Source: Candidatus Sungiibacteriota bacterium
GTDB taxonomy: Bacteria; Patescibacteriota; Minisyncoccia; Sungbacterales; HO2-52-23
Assembly (NCBI GenBank): GCA_016180435.1
Contig: JACPBG010000002.1
Coordinates: 60,342-124,341, forward strand
Direction of reading: 5' to 3'
Length of the DNA: 64,000 nt
Shown here: positions 6,253 through 44,058 of the stretch, piece after piece
How the letters are laid out: each line of letters starts with the position of its first letter
Numbering within the stretch: the first letter of the stretch is position 1
The notes under the pieces: generated by a model
Told to the model about the DNA's origin: nothing
Seen by the model: the letters and a program-made list of their open reading frames with translations, nothing else
Database searches by the model: none
Made by a program: the position numbers and the translations under genes

Positions 6253-6597
6253 ATGTCTATAAAAATCATTAAAAACAAAATATTTAAATCCGAGCTTTCG
6301 GAAATTGCCCAAAATCAATTCGGCGATTTTGTGAAAGCTGTGGTGGACATAAAAAAAGGGATAATGGCAGTCGGCGGTGAACTTCATGCTGATGAAGAAG
6401 CCCTGCTTTTAGAAGATGGCTCCCGGCAAGAAAATTTGTGGGGCATAAATTTGTATCCGAATAAAACCGCCAAGGATCGGATTGAATTTAATTCCATGAT
6501 AAATGTCCGGCCGTCCCAGGGAAATCGTTCGCGAGGGGTGGAGAATCCGGATATTCAGGAGAAGATAAAAACAATAGTTAAAAAGTTAGTTTCTTGA
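6253..6597 (+). CDS. small conserved hypothetical protein (resembles DUF5674 as I recall that family)
   Basis: 114-aa ORF containing FVKAVVDIKKGIMAVGGELHADEEALLLEDGSRQENLWGINLYP. The family assignment is from memory only. Confidence 0.5.
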   Translation: MSIKIIKNKIFKSELSEIAQNQFGDFVKAVVDIKKGIMAVGGELHADEEALLLEDGSRQENLWGINLYPNKTAKDRIEFNSMINVRPSQGNRSRGVENPDIQEKIKTIVKKLVS

Positions 6598-6601
6598 TGC
6601 C

Positions 6602-6931
6602 ATGCCCTTAGTACATAAAAATTTAGCGCGCGGAGCATGGCATAAACTCTCTTTAATTGAGCAATTGGCAAATATAGGCAGTGAAATAAGCCGTGCCCGG
6701 AATTGGCAGAATAAGGATCAGGGTATTTTTGAAAATGCGGTGTTAAGGGCGCTTGAGCTTTTTGATCTGACCCTGGCTGATCCGCGCTGGCGCGGCCGGC
6801 TGCGAGAAATAGCGCGGACACGAGAAGTATTTTTGGATGCGTTATCCGGCGGCAAAGAATATCAAAGTTCGCTGGATGACCTGGATCGATATTTTCTAAG
6901 TTTTGCCTATTGCGCCCGTTTAAATTTATAA
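6602..6931 (+). CDS. hypothetical protein
   Basis: 109-aa ORF starting 4 nt after the previous stop. I recognise no motif. Confidence 0.4.
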   Translation: MPLVHKNLARGAWHKLSLIEQLANIGSEISRARNWQNKDQGIFENAVLRALELFDLTLADPRWRGRLREIARTREVFLDALSGGKEYQSSLDDLDRYFLSFAYCARLNL

Positions 6932-36003: not shown

Positions 36004-36204
36004 GTGGCTTTTCAAGATCAACAGGGAGGATTCCAGGATGATCGCCCGAAATACGACATCACCTGTTCCAAATGTGGTAATCAAGGAACGGTTCCGTTCC
36101 CGCCCACACCGGGACGCGATGTCTTCTGCCGCGATTGTTTCCGTCAGAATAATCCGAATCCCCGCCGCGAATTTCGCGGACGCGGAGGATACGGATCAAG
36201 ATAA
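36004..36204 (+). CDS. small zinc-ribbon protein with a CxxC-x17-CxxC motif
   Basis: GTG start. The motif is CSKC-17 residues-CRDC, followed by an Arg/Gly-rich tail. Confidence 0.5.
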   Translation: MAFQDQQGGFQDDRPKYDITCSKCGNQGTVPFPPTPGRDVFCRDCFRQNNPNPRREFRGRGGYGSR

Positions 36205-36301: not shown

Positions 36302-37531
36302 ATGCGTTACGATTATCTCATTATAGGCGGAGGCATTGCCGGAGTTACTGCGGCCGAAACTATCCGGGAGGAAGACGCCCAAGCCACTATTGCCCTTGTT
36401 TCGGAAGAAACGCATCCTTTGTATTCAAGAGTCATGCTGCCGCGCTATCTAAAAAGAAAAATCCAGCGTGAGCAGCTTTTTTTGCGGACCGAGCATCAAT
36501 TTACCCAAAAAAGCATTGATTTACGGCTGGCGCAGGAGGTTTCATTTGTTGATACTAAGCGCGGGGAGATCGGATTGGTGAACCGCGCGATTCTTGGTTT
36601 TAAAAAACTTTTGATCGCAAGCGGAGGCCGGGTAAAAAGCATTCCGGAGAATTTGCGCGGCGAATTTTCATACCGCCTGCAAACTCTTGAGGATGCCGAC
36701 CGGCTTTTTAAGAATTTATATAAAATCACAAGCCCGATCGTAGTCGGATCGTCTTTGATCAGCTTGGAATTATTGGAAATTTTTGCCGTTCACAAAACCC
36801 CTCCCGTAGTTTTGGTGCGCGGCCCGCATTTTTTTCGGGAATTTTTGGACGCATCCGGCGCTGAAATTCTTCATGCCAATTTCCGGGCACACGGCATTGA
36901 CGCGCAATATAATACGACCGTAACGTCGGCCGAACCGAAGGATAACATGCTTAAAGTGCTGACCAGCCGGTATAGTGAAATAATTTGCGATGCCATGGCG
37001 TTTGGCATAGGCATTGAGCGAAATATTGGATTTCTGCATGGATCAGGAATAGAATGCGGGAAGGCCGGCGTCAAAACCAATGAGTTTTTGGAAACAAATG
37101 CCGAGGGAGTTTTTGCCGCCGGGGATGTTGCGGAATTTCAGGATGTTATTTCGGGCAAGCAACACGTTGTCGGCACCTGGACCAATGCGTTTTTACAGGG
37201 CAAGTGTGCGGGCTTGAATATGGTCGGAAAGCGGGAAATATTCAAGCGTGTTTCCTCGTATTCCATAACCAATCTCGGATTTCACATTACGATACTGGGC
37301 GAATGCGATGGTGAAGGAGTAGAGGATATTATTCGGATTGATTCGGCGCACAGGCAATATGAGCGTTTTTTTCTCAAAGATGGAATTATCTGCGGCACGG
37401 CGCTTATCAATCGTTTTCCGGATAAGCCCATTTTGGCAAAACTTATTGAAACCAGAACTCCGGTTGGTGAATACGCGGAACAATTGCGTGATTTCAGATT
37501 TGACATCGGGAGTATTCCGGTGATACAATAG
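36302..37531 (+). CDS. FAD/NAD(P)-dependent pyridine nucleotide-disulfide oxidoreductase family protein
   Basis: The N-terminal dinucleotide fold is YDYLIIGGGIAGVTAAE, with a second Rossmann segment and AAGDVAEF. Confidence 0.8.
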   Translation: MRYDYLIIGGGIAGVTAAETIREEDAQATIALVSEETHPLYSRVMLPRYLKRKIQREQLFLRTEHQFTQKSIDLRLAQEVSFVDTKRGEIGLVNRAILGFKKLLIASGGRVKSIPENLRGEFSYRLQTLEDADRLFKNLYKITSPIVVGSSLISLELLEIFAVHKTPPVVLVRGPHFFREFLDASGAEILHANFRAHGIDAQYNTTVTSAEPKDNMLKVLTSRYSEIICDAMAFGIGIERNIGFLHGSGIECGKAGVKTNEFLETNAEGVFAAGDVAEFQDVISGKQHVVGTWTNAFLQGKCAGLNMVGKREIFKRVSSYSITNLGFHITILGECDGEGVEDIIRIDSAHRQYERFFLKDGIICGTALINRFPDKPILAKLIETRTPVGEYAEQLRDFRFDIGSIPVIQ

Positions 37532-37611
37532 TTTTAAATTCACGAATCTAGCCCGAATTTTATTCGCGAATATTCGCGAATTTAATTCGTGATTGATTAG
37601 CGAAAAATTTT

Positions 37612-38352
37612 ATGGACGACATTGAATCACAAAACGAAGTAAAAACAGATGATAAAAAAGAAAATACATTTTTAATTCCGGCGTCAATCATTGTGGCCGG
37701 TGTTCTGATTGCGTTTGCGGTCTTTTATTCCGGACGCGGAGGAAATATGGCACCGTCGCGTCAGCCATCCGCGGCAAATAACACAGCACCCGCGGCTCCG
37801 GTTATCTCGGGAGATTTGGCTGATGACGATCCCACGCTTGGCAATCCGGACGCCCCGGTTACCATGGTTGAATTTAGTGATTTTCAGTGTCCGTTTTGCC
37901 GTTCCATGTGGCGCAATATCCTGCCGCAAATAAAAGAAAATTACATAAAAACCGGAAAAGTTAAATTTGTATACCGTGATTTTCCGTTAACATCCATTCA
38001 TCCCGGAGCAGAACCAGCGGCTTTGGCCGGCGAGTGTGCGGATGAGCAGGGAAAATTCTGGACTTTTCACGATAAAGTTTTCGAGGAACAGGATAAAAAA
38101 GGGCAGGGAACAGTGGAATTTGGCGCAGCGGATCTGAAACAATGGGCGCGCGCGGCAGGTTTGGATGGAGTTCAATTTGATTCTTGTCTGGGTTCGCGCA
38201 AATATGCGGATGAGGTTGCAAAGGACTTGCAGGACGGGGTAGCCGCCGGAGTTACCGGCACGCCCGCGACCTTTGTGAACGGCCGTTTGATTTCCGGCGC
38301 CCTTCCGTATGCGCAGTTTGAAGCGATAATTGAGGAGGCGTTCAAGAGATAG
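37612..38352 (+). CDS. membrane-anchored DsbA-family thiol:disulfide oxidoreductase
   Basis: TM helix, then FSDFQCPFC (the CxxC active site) and GTPATFVNG. Confidence 0.75.
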   Translation: MDDIESQNEVKTDDKKENTFLIPASIIVAGVLIAFAVFYSGRGGNMAPSRQPSAANNTAPAAPVISGDLADDDPTLGNPDAPVTMVEFSDFQCPFCRSMWRNILPQIKENYIKTGKVKFVYRDFPLTSIHPGAEPAALAGECADEQGKFWTFHDKVFEEQDKKGQGTVEFGAADLKQWARAAGLDGVQFDSCLGSRKYADEVAKDLQDGVAAGVTGTPATFVNGRLISGALPYAQFEAIIEEAFKR

Positions 38353-38386: not shown

Positions 38387-38395
38387 TGATATAAT
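38387..38395 (+). promoter_or_regulatory. extended -10 promoter for hicBA, with leaderless geometry
   Basis: TG-a-TATAAT, then 6 nt (gggttt), then the hicB ATG at 38402. Confidence 0.5.
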
Positions 38396-38401
38396 GGGTT
38401 T

Positions 38402-38617
38402 ATGAAGAAAACATATTTTACATCAGTTATATGGAAAGAAGGAAAATATTATGTTGCCCAGTGTCTTAATATTGATGTATCAAGTTTTGGTAAAACCAAA
38501 CGTGAAGCTCTAAAAAATCTGGAAGAGGCAGTGGAACTTTATTTGGAAGATAAACCGATTCGCGTTCAACGTGTTGTTTCGCCGTCTATTGTGGTGAGAG
38601 AATTGCAATATGCCTAA
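38402..38617 (+). CDS. hicB: HicB-like antitoxin (N-terminal domain only)
   Basis: 71 aa with WKEGKYYVAQCLNIDVSSFGKTKREALKNLEEAVELYLE. It overlaps hicA by 8 nt. Confidence 0.7.
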   Translation: MKKTYFTSVIWKEGKYYVAQCLNIDVSSFGKTKREALKNLEEAVELYLEDKPIRVQRVVSPSIVVRELQYA

Positions 38618-38822
38618 GTTGTTTTCATCGCGGCGTGTCATTCAGGTCCTGGAGCGCCAGGGCTTTGTTTTTATTTCTCAACGGGGAAGTCACGCCAAAT
38701 ATCGCAAAACCGGTCCGCATACATTTACCGCGATTGTCCCTGTTGGGAAAAAGGAGATTCCACACGGAACTTTTCGTTCTATTGTACGCCAATCAGGATT
38801 ACAGGAGGAGAATTTTGAATAA
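38610..38822 (+). CDS. hicA: HicA mRNA-interferase toxin
   Basis: VIQVLERQGFVFISQRGSHAKYRK and KKEIPHGTFRSIVRQSGL. Confidence 0.8.
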   Translation: MPKLFSSRRVIQVLERQGFVFISQRGSHAKYRKTGPHTFTAIVPVGKKEIPHGTFRSIVRQSGLQEENFE

Positions 38823-40593
38823 AATTATAAGCAATCAAGAAACAAAAATCTGTCAAAATTGTAAAAACGAGTTCACCATTGAATCGGTTGACTTTGCATT
38901 CTACGAAAAAATCCGTGTGCCGCCGCCCACCTGGTGTCCGGAGTGTAGGATGGTGCGGAGGATGGTGTTTAGAAACGAGCGCAAACTTTTTCGCATAAAA
39001 AGCGCGAAATCCGGCAAAGAAATTTTATCGTTAAATCCGCCGGAAGCCGGTGTTGCGGTTTATGATGAAAAAGAATGGTGGTCGGATGATTGGGATGCCC
39101 GAGAATACGGGAGAGAATATGATTTCTCGCGGCCGTTTTTTGATCAGTTTTTCGAGTTGTCGAGGGTTGTTCCGCGTTACAGCCGCGATGTCCTGAATAT
39201 GGTCAATAGCGATTATTCCGCCAATGCCGCTGATCTAAAAAATTGTTACCTTTTGTTTAACTCAAATTACAGCGAGGATTCTTCATACGGAAACGCCGTG
39301 GATAAATCACATTTTTGTTTTGATAATTCGCATATTCAAAAATGTGAAAGATGTTACGAGTCATTTTGGCTGGCAAATTGTTACCAGACCCATTTTTCCT
39401 CCAAGTGCGAGGATTGCCAGAGTGTATGGTTCTCAAAAAATTTACGCGGATGCAGCAATTGTTTCGGATGCGTGAATCTGCGCGGGAAAAATTACTGCAT
39501 TTTCAACAAGCAATATTCCAAAGAAGATTATATCAAAAAGTTGGAATCGTTTTCTTTGCATACTTTTTCCGGAATCACGGCAGTAAAGAAAACGGCGCTG
39601 GATTTTTGGTTAAAATTTCCCAACAAATATATTGAGGGCGTTAAAAATCTAAATTCATCCGGGGAATATGTTACGCATTCCAAAAATGTGCATCATGGTT
39701 ATTTGGTGCGTGAAGGGGAAGATTTGCGCTATGTCCAGTATGTGCAGCTGCCGCCCTCTAAAGATCTGATGGATATAACTGTCGGAGGGAACGGCATGGA
39801 ATTATCATATGAAAATGCGACAAGCGGTTGGGGCAGGGTTTATAACTTGAAATTTTGTGCGGAATGCTGGCCGGAGGTTCGGGATATGGAATATTCAATG
39901 TTTTGTACCTCATCCTCCAATCTTTTCGGGTGCGTGGGTCTTCATAAAAAAGAATTTTGCATTTTAAATAGGCAATATACGAAAGAATCCTTTGACCAGC
40001 TCAAGATAAAGATTATTAAACATATGGATGAAATGCCATATGTTGATTCGCGCGGCCGGGCGTATAAATATGGGGAGTTTTTTCCGCCGGAATTGTCGCC
40101 GTTTGCCTATAATCAAACTATTGCCATTGAGCATTTTCCTTTAACCAAAGAAGAAGCCGAGAAAGCGGGGTACAGATGGCAGGAGCCGACAAGGCGCGAA
40201 TATGAAATAACCATGACTGTGGATGAAATTCCGGATTCGATCAGGGATATCCGCGAAGACATTCTAAAAGAAGTTATTCAATGCGCGAGTTGCAAACGGG
40301 CGTATCGCCTGATACGTTCCGAATTGGAATTTTTGAAGAAAGAAGGCATTCCGGCGCCCAGAGTTTGCATTGACTGCCGGCATGACGAGCGTATCAGCCA
40401 AAGAAACAAAGCAATTTTTTATTCGCGCCGATGCGCGTGCAGCGGCCAAAATTCCGGGAACGGGGCGTATAAAAATACTGCTACTCATTTCCATGGTCCA
40501 AATCAGTGCCTTAATGAATTTAAAACAAGTTATGCGCCGGACAGGCCGGAGATAGTGTATTGCGAAGCGTGCTACAATTCTGAAGTTGTATAA
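38815..40593 (+). CDS. large Cys-rich multi-zinc-ribbon protein, paralog P1 (592 aa)
   Basis: TTG at 38815 lies 4 nt after AGGAGGAG and overlaps the hicA stop by 8 nt. The N-terminus reads CQNC...FYEKIRVPPPTWCPECR, and the C-terminus has CASC...CIDCR and YCEACYNSEVV. Colinear with P2. Confidence 0.7.
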   Translation: MNKIISNQETKICQNCKNEFTIESVDFAFYEKIRVPPPTWCPECRMVRRMVFRNERKLFRIKSAKSGKEILSLNPPEAGVAVYDEKEWWSDDWDAREYGREYDFSRPFFDQFFELSRVVPRYSRDVLNMVNSDYSANAADLKNCYLLFNSNYSEDSSYGNAVDKSHFCFDNSHIQKCERCYESFWLANCYQTHFSSKCEDCQSVWFSKNLRGCSNCFGCVNLRGKNYCIFNKQYSKEDYIKKLESFSLHTFSGITAVKKTALDFWLKFPNKYIEGVKNLNSSGEYVTHSKNVHHGYLVREGEDLRYVQYVQLPPSKDLMDITVGGNGMELSYENATSGWGRVYNLKFCAECWPEVRDMEYSMFCTSSSNLFGCVGLHKKEFCILNRQYTKESFDQLKIKIIKHMDEMPYVDSRGRAYKYGEFFPPELSPFAYNQTIAIEHFPLTKEEAEKAGYRWQEPTRREYEITMTVDEIPDSIRDIREDILKEVIQCASCKRAYRLIRSELEFLKKEGIPAPRVCIDCRHDERISQRNKAIFYSRRCACSGQNSGNGAYKNTATHFHGPNQCLNEFKTSYAPDRPEIVYCEACYNSEVV

Positions 40594-40596
40594 TGA

Positions 40597-40723
40597 AAGC
40601 ACGCGGAGTCCCGCCTCAATTCAAGAATTGATTTTGTATATAGATGTAGTAAGCCGAAGGCGTTGCTGCGCTATGATCCTAATTTTACTGCTGACTTCGC
40701 ACGGAATTGAGGCGGACGAAAAT
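40597..40723. repeat. hairpin insert flanked by an imperfect 26-nt duplication of the P1 3' coding end
   Basis: Arms CCGCCTCAATTC (40611-22) and GAATTGAGGCGG (40704-15). The flanks are tgctacaattctgaagttgtataatga and tgctacaataatgaagtggtatgatg. Confidence 0.75.
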
Positions 40724-40750
40724 TGCTACAATAATGAAGTGGTATGATGT

Positions 40751-40779
40751 TTGACCGTTATATCTATGTTTGTTATTAT
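40751..40779 (+). promoter_or_regulatory. sigma-70-like promoter for the DUF2283/DUF4258 pair, with leaderless geometry
   Basis: TTGACC, 17 nt, TATTAT, 6 nt, ATG (40786). Confidence 0.6.
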
Positions 40780-40785
40780 TGAACC

Positions 40786-41013
40786 ATGGCTAATCATAAG
40801 CGACAATTTGTACATTATGATCCGGAGGCTGACGTTATTGCCATGTATAACGGTAAGGGGCGTGAAGAGGAGTTCGTGGAAGTGGCGCCCAATGTTTCTT
40901 TAGAATTAGACAAAAAAGGGTCGGTAATCGGTATTGAAATTTTGAACGCATCTAAAGTGTTGCGTCCTTTTTGGAACTCATTGCGTAAACGGCAATCTTC
41001 TTACATAAAGTAA
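40786..41013 (+). CDS. DUF2283-like small protein (putative antitoxin)
   Basis: YDPEADVIAMY and GSVIGIEILNASKVL. The next gene starts at the following nucleotide. Confidence 0.6.
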   Translation: MANHKRQFVHYDPEADVIAMYNGKGREEEFVEVAPNVSLELDKKGSVIGIEILNASKVLRPFWNSLRKRQSSYIK

Positions 41014-41304
41014 ATGGAAGTTCGCTACAGTCAACATCTTGAAATTCGTCTCACAATGCGCGGCATACCACACGAGTTGCCGCGCATTGTATATGAAAAT
41101 GCCAAGCGGCGGTTTCATGATACTGACTCGGATCTTGACATTGCGGTGCTGCGTACCGCTTTTTACGGACGGCAACGGGATGTTGTGGTTGCCTATCGTA
41201 TATATTCAGATTATGTTTTGCTGATTACTATCCACCCACTTAAAGAAGGACAATTCGAAAACCGGATTCGCTCTGGACGTTGGACGGAGATTCCATCGTT
41301 ATGA
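41014..41304 (+). CDS. DUF4258-like small protein (putative toxin)
   Basis: 96 aa with YSQHLEIRLTMRGIP and VVVAYRIYSDYVLLITIHP. Family recall is from memory. Confidence 0.55.
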   Translation: MEVRYSQHLEIRLTMRGIPHELPRIVYENAKRRFHDTDSDLDIAVLRTAFYGRQRDVVVAYRIYSDYVLLITIHPLKEGQFENRIRSGRWTEIPSL

Positions 41305-41376
41305 GTTGTGATGTAAAAGAATATTTACCCTCCCAAATTTTACAAAGTAAAACTTGGGAGGGCGGGCGAAAAAAAT

Positions 41377-43101
41377 ATGACACGACAATGCCAAAATTGT
41401 AACCAGAGCTTTGAAATTGCCCCCGAGGACCTTTCGTTTTACGACCGCATTCATGTCCCGCCGCCCACCTGGTGTCCAAGATGCCGGTTTCAGAGACGGC
41501 TCGCATTTTTTAATTTAACCGCGCTTTACAAGCGAAAATGCGATCTTTGCGGCGAGGAAAAAATTTCCATTTATCGTCCGGATGCGCCTTATAGAGTTTA
41601 TTGTCCGCCCTGCTGGTGGTCGGATAAGTGGGACCCTATGCAATATGGACGTGATTACGATTTTTCACGATCGTTTTTTGAGCAATACGCTGATCTTGTG
41701 CATGAGGTCCCGCACTGCGGCTTGGCAACTGACCATACGACGGTCATCAATTCAACCTATACCAATCACGCCGGAAATCTCAAAAATTGCTATTTGTTAT
41801 TCCAGGCGGATTTTAATGAGGACTGCGCGCACGGAGTATATGTTAAAAATTCAAGGTCCACGCTTGATTCCTCATTGATATTGAAATCCGAACTCTGCTA
41901 TGACTCCATGCACTCATATAAAAATAGCCATTGTGCGGGACTGCGAAGCCAGGTGACCAATTCGCTTGATTGTTACTTTCTCAAGGACTCATTTAATTGC
42001 CAGTATTGTTTTGCATCCGCCAATTTGCGAAATCGGAAGCATGTTATTTTTAATAAGCAATATTCTCCGGAAGATTATTTTAAGGAAATCGCGAGATGGG
42101 ATTTAGGTTCGTACGCCAAGTATCAAGAGATCAAATGTCTTGCCGAGGCGCACTGGAAAACTTTGCCGCCCAAGCCGCATATGGATGATTTTTCCGTAAA
42201 TTCATCGGGCAGCCATTACTTCCAGTGCAAAAACTGCAAGGATTGTTTTGAGGTGTGGGGCGAGGCCGAAGACAGTAAGTTTCTTTTTATGCTTTCCATT
42301 CCTCCGTTGAAAGATTGTTACGACGTATCAACCTGGGGCAATAATTTGCAGTTATCGTATGAATCATATGCAGTGGGCGAGCAGGGCGCCAATCTTAAAT
42401 TTTGTGCGGAGTCGGGTATCAATGCGCATTTACTGGAATATTGCAAGTTTACATTCGGAGGGGTGGAGGATTTCGGATGCGTTGGGTTGCGAAAGAAACA
42501 ATACTGTATCTTGAATAAACAATATACGAAAGAGGAGTATGAGAAAATGGTGCCAAAAATCAAGAAGCATATGGATGAAATGCCGTATATTTCAGAAATC
42601 CGAAATCCGAAGCACGAAATCCGAAAGATAATATATAAATACGGGGAATTTTTTCCGATAGAATTGAGTCCGTTTCCTTATAACGATACTGTGGCGCATA
42701 ATTTTTTCCCGCTTACCAAAGAAGATGCGTTGGCACGGGGATATAAATGGGGCGATAAAGAAAAAAGAGCTTATCCCATCACAATAAAGGCAAGCGATCT
42801 GCCGGATCATATCAAAGATGCGCCAGGTACCATTTTACAGGAAGTGATAGAATGTGTTGCATGCGGCCGGGGATTTAGAATCATTCCGATGGAGTTTAAA
42901 TTTTTACGAAAAATGAATTTGCCTTTGCCTCGGCAATGCCCGTTTTGCCGGATTGATGAGAAATTCACACTGTGGGTTAAAGATTTACGGGTTATCCCGC
43001 GGACGTGCGATAAGTGCGGCACATCGCTCACGACCAATTACACGCAAGAGGAAGCCCCTGTGATTTATTGCAAAGCATGCTATAATAATGAAGTAATATA
43101 A
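41377..43101 (+). CDS. large Cys-rich multi-zinc-ribbon protein, paralog P2 (574 aa)
   Basis: CQNC...FYDRIHVPPPTWCPRCR, a second knuckle CDLC...CPPC, central Cys-containing repeats, then C-terminal CVAC...CPFCR, CDKC and YCKACYNNEVI. About 33 Cys by manual count. Confidence 0.75.
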   Translation: MTRQCQNCNQSFEIAPEDLSFYDRIHVPPPTWCPRCRFQRRLAFFNLTALYKRKCDLCGEEKISIYRPDAPYRVYCPPCWWSDKWDPMQYGRDYDFSRSFFEQYADLVHEVPHCGLATDHTTVINSTYTNHAGNLKNCYLLFQADFNEDCAHGVYVKNSRSTLDSSLILKSELCYDSMHSYKNSHCAGLRSQVTNSLDCYFLKDSFNCQYCFASANLRNRKHVIFNKQYSPEDYFKEIARWDLGSYAKYQEIKCLAEAHWKTLPPKPHMDDFSVNSSGSHYFQCKNCKDCFEVWGEAEDSKFLFMLSIPPLKDCYDVSTWGNNLQLSYESYAVGEQGANLKFCAESGINAHLLEYCKFTFGGVEDFGCVGLRKKQYCILNKQYTKEEYEKMVPKIKKHMDEMPYISEIRNPKHEIRKIIYKYGEFFPIELSPFPYNDTVAHNFFPLTKEDALARGYKWGDKEKRAYPITIKASDLPDHIKDAPGTILQEVIECVACGRGFRIIPMEFKFLRKMNLPLPRQCPFCRIDEKFTLWVKDLRVIPRTCDKCGTSLTTNYTQEEAPVIYCKACYNNEVI

Positions 43102-43276: not shown

Positions 43277-43510
43277 ATGGCTAATGTAAAAATCTATACC
43301 ACTCCATCCTGCGTTTACTGCAAAATGGCCAAGGAGTTTTTCAAAAATAATAATGTCGCGTATGAGGAAAAAAACGTGGCCCAAGATGCGGCGGCGCGGG
43401 ATGAGATGATTCAAAAATCCGGCCAGCTCGGGGTACCGGTCATAGACATTGACGGGAAAATTATCGTGGGATTTGATCAGCCGGAGTTAAAAGAAGCGCT
43501 TCATATATGA
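43277..43510 (+). CDS. glutaredoxin/NrdH-like small redoxin
   Basis: 77 aa with IYTTPSCVYCKMAKEFF (CxxC) and GVPVIDIDG. Confidence 0.7.
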   Translation: MANVKIYTTPSCVYCKMAKEFFKNNNVAYEEKNVAQDAAARDEMIQKSGQLGVPVIDIDGKIIVGFDQPELKEALHI

Positions 43511-44058
43511 GCGGCAAGATATTTTGGTTTATTATAGCGATTGTTATGGCCGCGGGGGTTGTTTATTATATTTTAAGCTGGCGCGGAGCGGTTGATATGC
43601 CTGTCCCTCCGACGGCTAAGCCAATGCCGGAATTAATCTTTAGCGATTATGAGGGGAAGATTGTTAATTTATCCGAATTTCGAGGCCCGCTTCGCTCTCG
43701 CGAAAGCGAGGCGAGCAAGCCGTTGATAATAAACGTCTGGGCTTCATGGTGTTCATATTGTAAAAAAGAATTATCGGATTTTGCCGTAATCCAGCAGGAA
43801 TTCGGTGAAAAAATCACGGTGATTGCGATTGATCGCAGAGAAACGCCCGAGGCCGTTAAAAAGTATTCCGATGATCTGGGCGTGACCGGAAAAATTATTT
43901 TACTGCTTGATCCGGATGATTCTTTATATAAAGCCATCAGTGGTTTTTCCATGCCCGAAACCTTATTTGTGGACCGTGAAGGATCTATTCGTTATCATAA
44001 GCGCGGCCCCATGGAGTTAGAAGAAATTAGAAGGAGGGCGCAGAAAATTTTATTATAA
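43507..44058 (+). CDS. membrane-anchored TlpA/ResA-like thioredoxin-fold protein
   Basis: TM helix, then NVWASWCSYCKKE (WCxxC). It overlaps the upstream gene by ATGA and contains a 30-nt in-frame repeat insert. Confidence 0.75.
   Translation: MSGKIFWFIIAIVMAAGVVYYILSWRGAVDMPVPPTAKPMPELIFSDYEGKIVNLSEFRGPLRSRESEASKPLIINVWASWCSYCKKELSDFAVIQQEFGEKITVIAIDRRETPEAVKKYSDDLGVTGKIILLLDPDDSLYKAISGFSMPETLFVDREGSIRYHKRGPMELEEIRRRAQKILL
43686..43720. repeat. R2b 30-nt mini-palindrome, in-frame in the TlpA-like gene
   Basis: ccgcttcgctctcgc-gaaa-gcgaggcgagc, translated PLRSRESEAS. The same arms occur at 63738-63767. Confidence 0.8.

Follow-up and report, generated by a model that had tools for sequence, protein, structure and literature searches.

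Enrichment of unrelated toxin-antitoxin cassettes directly upstream of a large family of cysteine-rich patescibacterial proteins

In a 64-kb window from an ultra-small groundwater bacterium (the window being the whole 64,000-nt stretch of DNA that was analysed), two toxin-antitoxin (TA) cassettes of unrelated families each lie directly 5′ of a gene for a large cysteine-rich protein. The two proteins, P1 and P2, belong to a family here designated P, and P2 is a 100% match to NCBI HYT98_02360 from a metagenome-assembled Candidatus Sungbacteria genome. In a collection of P-centred loci, 18 of 262 P genes had a co-oriented TA cassette as their immediate 5′ neighbour, and among the other genes of these loci 5 of 1199 did (Fisher odds ratio 17.6, p = 3e-10). 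With moderate confidence we propose that unrelated small type II TA cassettes land and are retained preferentially at the 5′ flank of P genes, and that they turn over rapidly in this slot. The genes in question, identified by open reading frame (ORF) listing and Pfam scans, are as follows.

38402..38617, + strand: hicB-like antitoxin candidate, 71 aa, with the HicB/UPF0150 N-terminal fold only and without a DNA-binding domain
38610..38822, + strand: hicA toxin gene, 70 aa, matching PF07927 HicA_toxin at E 1.2e-15
38803..38810, + strand: Shine-Dalgarno sequence AGGAGGAG of P1, within the 3′ end of hicA and 4 nt ahead of the TTG at 38815
38815..40593, + strand: P1, 592 aa, P family, subfamily without zinc ribbon 2, hidden Markov model (HMM) score 769
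40786..41013, + strand: DUF2283 gene, 75 aa, matching PF10049 at E 1.6e-12 (47.8 bits, cut-off 23), putative antitoxin-like partner
41014..41304, + strand: orf96, 96 aa, putative toxin with the motif ITIHPLKxGQxENRxRSGRW, conserved partner of DUF2283
41377..43101, + strand: P2, 574 aa, core-type P, all four Cys4 zinc ribbons complete, with two predicted beta-solenoid segments

A preliminary description of this DNA had already placed hicB, hicA and P1, and likewise the DUF2283 gene, its partner and P2, at these positions. The TTG start 4 nt after AGGAGGAG, the 8-nt overlap of that start with the hicA stop codon (38820-38822) and the 72-nt gap between orf96 and P2 were all verified in the sequence. 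The hicB-like gene and hicA also overlap by 8 nt. Projection of the family HMM onto the P1 ORF, which can be extended 5′ as far as a GTG at 38635, returned the same TTG start. As for the naming of the first pair, hicA was confirmed, with 57.7 bits against a cut-off of 27 and positions 2-58 of the 58-position model covered, whereas the hicB-like product reached only sub-threshold similarity (DUF7387, E 6.7e-6, 26.8 bits versus a cut-off of 27.9; UPF0150, E 0.05) and weakly resembles the Pfam-confirmed HicB of other loci.

The upstream neighbours of P homologs were tabulated in 162 P-centred loci (cited below by L numbers), made up of 79 species-representative genome loci, 79 metagenome loci and several look-ups. 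Genes were re-called with HMM-projected P starts, which gave 286 unique full-length P genes including the two of the window; the 262 informative P genes outside the window are the basis of the neighbour count. For the Pfam scan, the small ORFs upstream of P were joined into concatenated packs; the phmmer comparison with TA seeds covered all ORFs of all loci. The commonest upstream neighbour was another P gene (109), the remainder being large genes (79) and small ORFs (74). When only Pfam matches were counted, TA components made up 17 of 105 ORFs upstream of P and 1 of 174 elsewhere (odds ratio 33). Elsewhere in these loci, 140 small ORFs yielded a single TA pair (VapBC, L017), and of the remaining small ORFs in the 64-kb window, 34 in number, none was a Pfam-recognisable TA component. 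The earlier view that the juxtaposition of TA and P is not due to chance is thus borne out in other genomes. Two further ORFs of about 135-140 aa directly 5′ of P (L099:2147-2554 and L124:2717-3142) look HEPN-like by eye and have no Pfam match at E<=1e-3; if these are toxins, the TA count is too low.

Co-oriented cassettes directly 5′ of P were found in about 20 loci and represent at least six toxin families; a single divergent cassette, a hicBA pair, was seen in L003. The co-oriented cassettes are distributed as follows.

HicBA: L080-82, L109, L131
RelE/ParE: L026, L052, L089, L098, L103, L107, L125, L151, L159
PemK/MazF: L012, L070, L142
Gp49/HigB with HTH_3: L071, L083
PIN: L130
DUF2283-orf96: L006, and also L166 and L167, which came from a search from the TA side

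Several comparisons point to a rapid exchange of these cassettes. A P2 ortholog at 78% identity (L080), with the same downstream Grx/AhpC/6PGL synteny, is preceded by hicBA and not by DUF2283-orf96, and its HicA is only 35% identical to that of the window; a 65%-identical P2 ortholog is preceded by HigBA. Vertical descent of a hicBA-P1 unit was considered but is questionable, HicA proteins ahead of P genes being only 26-38% identical to the window protein. TA-positive P genes are scattered over every major P subfamily, and in one subclade, at 50% identity (n=16), the five TA-positive P genes carry four TA families between them. In most cases the P start lies between -7 and +14 nt from the toxin stop. 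With respect to P gene arrays, 13 cassettes lie between two P genes, 7 at the 5′ edge of an array and at most 1 at the 3′ edge. The 78%-identical ortholog (L080-L082; 613-2349 of L080) was called as two ORFs of 105 and 468 aa; the 468-aa product occurs on 11 metagenome contigs and the split was present in all three that were inspected, corresponding either to a real frameshift or pseudogene or to a recoding site.

The P family itself is large. Of 8000 scored candidates 7996 were homologous, every named source being Patescibacteria/Parcubacteria, and an exhaustive HMMER search yielded 3525 P clusters at 50% identity. The family runs to thousands of clusters, reaches seven copies in a single locus and takes up over 1% of some sub-megabase genomes. 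It is also strongly conserved. Identity among P2-type proteins of different candidate families is 55-65%, as befits a core gene more than the effector that had been suggested. The best-supported description of P is that of a large, cytoplasmic family confined to Patescibacteria, whose members are core proteins independent of TA. No function was recognised for it in the preliminary description, and the present searches agree, matching no characterised enzyme family. P1 and P2 have no Pfam or NCBIfam match, the best match to PDB sequences has an E-value of at least 0.077, and Foldseek comparison of the P model with PDB and BFVD returned no match at E<=1e-3. Literature on Patescibacteria and TA, and on zinc-ribbon paralogs, contained nothing on the P family, and a paper on an ANME-1 hicAB hotspot proved to be unrelated. 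Most lineage-specific families in this radiation are without an assigned role, and the directional association with TA genes is one of few genomic clues to P.

An AlphaFold2 model of P2 built with 38 homologs (pLDDT 88, pTM 0.87) places two zinc ribbons at the N-terminus, followed by two stretches of short strands (about 130-225 and 278-360), each closed by an FGC..CI.N.QY module and then a helix, a hairpin bearing YKYGEFFP, and two C-terminal ribbons. The invariant cysteines of the family form four CxxC...CxxC sets. According to the model, the strand stretches are two predicted beta-solenoids and the Cys4 sets four predicted zinc ribbons. Known beta-solenoid proteins (curli CsgA, insect antifreeze proteins and left-handed beta-helix acyltransferases) show 3-12% identity to P and a whole-protein TM of at most 0.11; unlike these, P is equipped with four zinc ribbons, lacks a signal peptide and uses another rung motif, and no hexapeptide-repeat Pfam match was obtained when P was tested as a left-handed beta-helix acyltransferase. 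Our guess is that P may be a zinc-dependent scaffold binding nucleic acid or protein, possibly hetero-oligomeric among paralogs.

P1 and P2 are colinear from end to end with 40% identity (E 2e-150), as had been described, and the duplicated FGCVGL..CILN.QY module, the HMDEMPY..YKYGEFFP segment and the CYNxEV end noted at that time are all visible in their alignment. A second segment of the comparison joins the N-terminal ribbon to the third, C-terminal ribbon (E 3e-5), indicating that the ribbons of the two termini are related to each other. All four cysteines of ribbon 2 are missing from P1 (Cys pattern CCCC----), as previously remarked; this is not a private loss of P1 but an old subfamily trait, since ribbon 2 is incomplete or absent in 57 of 149 full-length homologs and all of the best P1 matches share the P1 pattern. 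Within one foreign array, P1 is 64% identical to L001:614-2431 and P2 61% identical to L001:6001-7695. Since both are closer to these orthologs than to each other, the split between P1 and P2 predates the genomes compared. The preliminary description had taken the locus for a tandem repeat of a TA-plus-P unit; such a duplicated three-gene unit is excluded by the unrelated TA pairs and by the closer orthologs of P1 and P2 in other genomes, and the window is not the product of a recent duplication of such a unit. Arrays of P genes are common, 43 of the 79 species-representative genome loci holding 2-7 tandem copies. A P paralog precedes the P2-type gene in 22 of 38 informative loci, and these paralogs come from varied subfamilies, three of them from that of P1, so that a conserved order of P1-type followed by P2-type gene is only partly true.

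The second cassette is of a rare kind. The orf96 product has no Pfam match at E<=1, and its family comprises 19 homolog clusters, none with a Pfam assignment; only 2 of 15 relatives touch PF14076 (DUF4258), with a best E of 0.097. Neither the earlier naming of orf96 as DUF4258 nor kinship to a solved toxin is supported. The gene always adjoins DUF2283, and four of the five patescibacterial DUF2283-orf96 cassettes (the window, L006, L166 and L167, the exception being L163) lie directly 5′ of P. The window and L006 (8026-8253) versions of DUF2283 are 62% identical. In a non-patescibacterial Gram-negative genome (L164:4001-4551, L165:2076-2626), orf96 is followed by DUF2283 in the absence of P, with LptC and sigma-54 neighbours, showing that the pair is an autonomous two-gene module. 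Putative DUF4258/DUF2283 TA pairs likewise combine DUF2283 with a partner of about 95 aa, but orf96 is not significant against PF14076, and in Patescibacteria DUF2283 comes first, usually with a P gene next.

The first cassette resembles HicAB modules in having a hicA gene well above the PF07927 cut-off and a small overlapping partner with weak HicB/UPF0150 similarity. In the classical hicAB of E. coli the toxin gene comes first. Here, the antitoxin-like gene is first, the HicB of 71 aa is without a DNA-binding domain, and a large gene appears translationally coupled to hicA.

Both cassettes are preceded by promoter-like sequences, and a hairpin, a partial copy of a P-gene end and a heptamer run were found between or within the genes.

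38387..38395, + strand: extended -10-like element TGaTATAAT (TATAAT hexamer at 38390-38395), read from the sequence, ending 6 nt ahead of the hicB ATG
40751..40779, + strand: promoter-like TTGACC-17-TATTAT with TG, the best of the region with 10/12 matches, ending 6 nt ahead of the DUF2283 ATG
41327..41363, + strand: 17-bp hairpin in the 72-nt spacer between orf96 and P2, -20.7 kcal/mol, z -3.6, with 0/200 shuffles folding equally well
40724..40747, + strand: 22-nt copy of a P-gene 3′ end, encoding ..CYNNEVV* with an in-frame stop, at the left edge of the second cassette
42595..42626, + strand: imperfect GAAATCC heptamer run inside P2, 4.6 copies, 76% match, TRF score 43

The element at 38387-38395 was absent from a promoter consensus scan because it has no -35 hexamer. 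No Shine-Dalgarno sequence lies between it and the hicB-like ATG, and the transcript of the first cassette is probably leaderless. The two cassettes share the geometry of a -10-like element 6 nt 5′ of the first ATG, which suggests that both give rise to leaderless transcripts, each from its own promoter. The hairpin at 41327-41363 is not followed by a U-tract on the + strand; its 3′ arm holds GGGAGGG, the only Shine-Dalgarno-like sequence ahead of the P2 ATG, and the hairpin might gate translation of P2 or mark a site of RNA processing. A GC-rich hairpin after the toxin stop was found in four of six spacers folded (the window, L012, L070 and L142), these being the spacers of 70-85 nt.

The 22-nt copy matches the end of P1 at 19 of 22 nt and that of P2 at 16 of 17 nt. 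It lies 130 nt past the real P1 stop and just 5′ of the promoter-like site of DUF2283, and could be the remnant of a lost third P gene or the scar of cassette recombination. The heptamer run noted earlier in P2 is present in a weak and imperfect form and encodes EIRNPKHEIRK in frame, an insert relative to homologs; it is too short and imperfect for a contingency repeat, which was rejected.

If the 5′ flank of P genes is a slot for passing TA cassettes, the two cassettes of the window would have been captured independently, each bringing its own promoter, and the P gene would become the distal cistron. P1 would be translationally coupled to hicA through the strong Shine-Dalgarno sequence within hicA and the overlap of stop and start codons, and P2 would be reached from orf96 across a spacer whose hairpin has no U-tract. 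A likely consequence would be that TA autoregulation extends to the expression of P, and that the cassette gains stable residence beside a gene that the cell must keep.

About 93% of P genes have no TA, so that the three-gene architecture envisaged at first is not an obligate system, and TA is a facultative 5′ rider and not part of P function. Several points weigh against the proposal of a slot. The loci are not phylogenetically independent, and gene calling simply took the longest ORF, a crude procedure. Because the phmmer seeds came from cassettes next to P genes, the junction count is biased; counting Pfam matches only removes this bias but draws on fewer ORFs. The hairpins in the 70-85-nt spacers of L012, L070 and L142 are terminator-like and followed by AT-rich stretches, and P may be transcribed independently in these loci. 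We infer co-transcription, and with it TA autoregulation of P, from spacing alone. Finally, junctions that overlap so exactly resemble those of operons with a long shared evolution more than those left by recent insertions, and so speak for an explanation along the lines of the tripartite systems considered next.

In toxin-antitoxin-chaperone (TAC) systems, the nearest analogue, a HigBA, HicAB or MqsRA pair is encoded in one operon with a chaperone of SecB type, whose family consists mostly of housekeeping proteins (PMC5105189). By analogy, P would be a third component drawn from a housekeeping family, which binds or stabilises the antitoxin, or senses a trigger, and so controls toxin activation, with TA-linked P specialised for this role. 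The logic of the two arrangements is shared, in that type II TA pairs of unrelated families (HigBA and HicAB among them) are joined to the same kind of conserved third gene, which is placed last and whose family is mostly TA-independent (PMC5105189). The P-linked cassettes are strictly 5′ and co-oriented, with overlapping or tightly spaced genes for at least six toxin families, and are presumably co-transcribed with P; their bias towards the 5′ edge of arrays (seven, against at most one at the 3′ edge) points the same way. Moreover, most of the identified toxins belong to known RNase families, and zinc ribbons often bind nucleic acid or protein. However, the third gene here encodes a protein of about 570 aa, with four predicted zinc ribbons and a beta-solenoid, that is not a SecB homolog, neither P1 nor P2 having a SecB match. 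TA-linked P proteins do not form a dedicated clade, one subclade carrying four TA families, and since cassettes are exchanged between close relatives P would have to serve unrelated antitoxins. The 71-aa HicB of the window has no C-terminal extension comparable to a chaperone-addiction (ChAD) element, and no ChAD-like antitoxin extension is evident; DUF2283 carries a basic and aromatic tail of 19 aa past its domain (residues 57-75). Together with the large majority of P genes that have no TA, these differences make a TAC-like system unlikely. We similarly regard as doubtful the broader notion that a lineage-specific P is functionally wired to interchangeable type II TA pairs, either as a TAC-like adaptor of toxin control with a new fold or as a factor under TA stress control. 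If this wiring were true, it would open one of the radiation's largest uncharacterised families to functional study for the first time, and a functional link would extend the tripartite TA concept beyond SecB-like chaperones. If the link is purely positional, it describes a TA hotspot with rapid turnover in otherwise low-flux genomes, which would bear on the persistence of selfish elements in streamlined genomes.

A different kind of benefit is conceivable, in which TA pairs act as addiction modules that guard an unstable P array against loss by deletion, or in which TA-plus-P units are mobile and recombine through the conserved ends of P genes. TA cassettes have been proposed to stabilise the gene-cassette arrays of chromosomal superintegrons, where TA pairs are likewise interspersed in a tandem gene array. 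The cassettes between two P genes (13 of about 20) and an array copy number of 1 to 7 are consistent with such a role, as are P remnants near cassettes, namely the 22-nt copy at 40724-40747, fragments of 54 and 64 aa in L098, and further partial P ORFs in L010, L029, L039 and L079. Unlike superintegrons, the P arrays consist of paralogs of one family, every cassette precedes an array gene in the same orientation, and no integrase was noticed among the neighbours scanned. Nor was an attC-like site or a transposase seen in the loci, in which no systematic search for such elements was made. At about 40% protein identity the paralogs are too diverged for efficient homologous recombination, and in seven cases the cassette stands ahead of a lone P gene or of the first in an array, the genes on its other side being unrelated. 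Between the window and L006, DUF2283 (62%), orf96 (56%) and the P2 orthologs (56%) have diverged alike, with no sign of recent transfer. We consider stabilisation or mobility of this sort quite unlikely.

It could also be argued that there is no functional link, that P arrays occupy variable non-operonic stretches which tolerate selfish TA, and that the two cassettes of the window are coincidental. The genomic background consists in good part of tight housekeeping operons (for example of ribosomal proteins and tRNA synthetases) in which insertions would be lethal, two ParE pairs lie 2-3.5 kb downstream in the close relative L080, and the VapBC pair of L017 is not beside a P gene. Against this, the enrichment was measured within the same loci, 20 cassettes are co-oriented and 5′ while one is divergent, the junctions are usually within 14 nt or overlapping, and four of the five patescibacterial members of the rare 19-cluster TA family stand ahead of P, making coincidence improbable. 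An anti-phage module, with P as sensor or effector and the TA pair as executioner of abortive infection, would suit the multi-copy arrays and TA genes typical of defence islands and the phage defence that has been shown for TAC systems (bioRxiv 10.1101/2024.02.24.581848), but is highly improbable given that PADLOC models gave no match at a meaningful E-value to any of the six locus proteins, that no P relatives occur among 2.9 million viral contigs (IMG/VR), which also speaks against a phage origin of P, and that the conservation of P2-type proteins and their conserved housekeeping synteny are both unlike defence genes.

Other neighbours of P genes were recorded alongside the cassettes. Among the non-P neighbours of P arrays, a VirD4/TraG-like ATPase (TrwB_AAD_bind) is the most frequent, being located within three genes of P in 33 of the 162 loci (L002, L006-L010, L013-L016, L026, L029-L031, L035, L043, L045, L046, L051, L069, L070 and others). 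It occurs in a form of about 485 aa and in one of about 600 aa with a C-terminal zf_Tbcl_2, often together with ComEC, TrmD or PilM. The same finger makes up nearly all of a 66-aa ORF in the window (36004-36204; zf_Tbcl_2 treble-clef zinc finger, PF23477, E 8e-13), which has weak phmmer matches to two P paralogs. Genes immediately upstream of P include CutA1 (L010, L016, L031, L046, L074, L088), a small cytidylyltransferase-like gene (L014, L016, L091) and an ArsR-type HTH gene (L006, L007, L136); the CutA1 and ArsR neighbours are suggestive of a link between metal tolerance or sensing and the zinc-rich P.

A DUF5674 gene is present in the window (6253-6931), directly upstream of P in L005 (22-675) and L037 (5226-5942), and just downstream in L033 (1702-2013). 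A conserved partner of about 90-110 aa comes next in both the window and L005, and the resulting bicistron could be a further TA-like pair without a Pfam label. The P locus of the window is surrounded by thiol-redox genes, with a pyridine nucleotide-disulfide oxidoreductase and a DsbA-like thioredoxin upstream (36302-38352) and a glutaredoxin and an AhpC/TlpA-like redoxin downstream (43277-44058). The downstream part is kept in the relative L080, and a tie between these neighbours and the cysteine-rich zinc protein P is conceivable.

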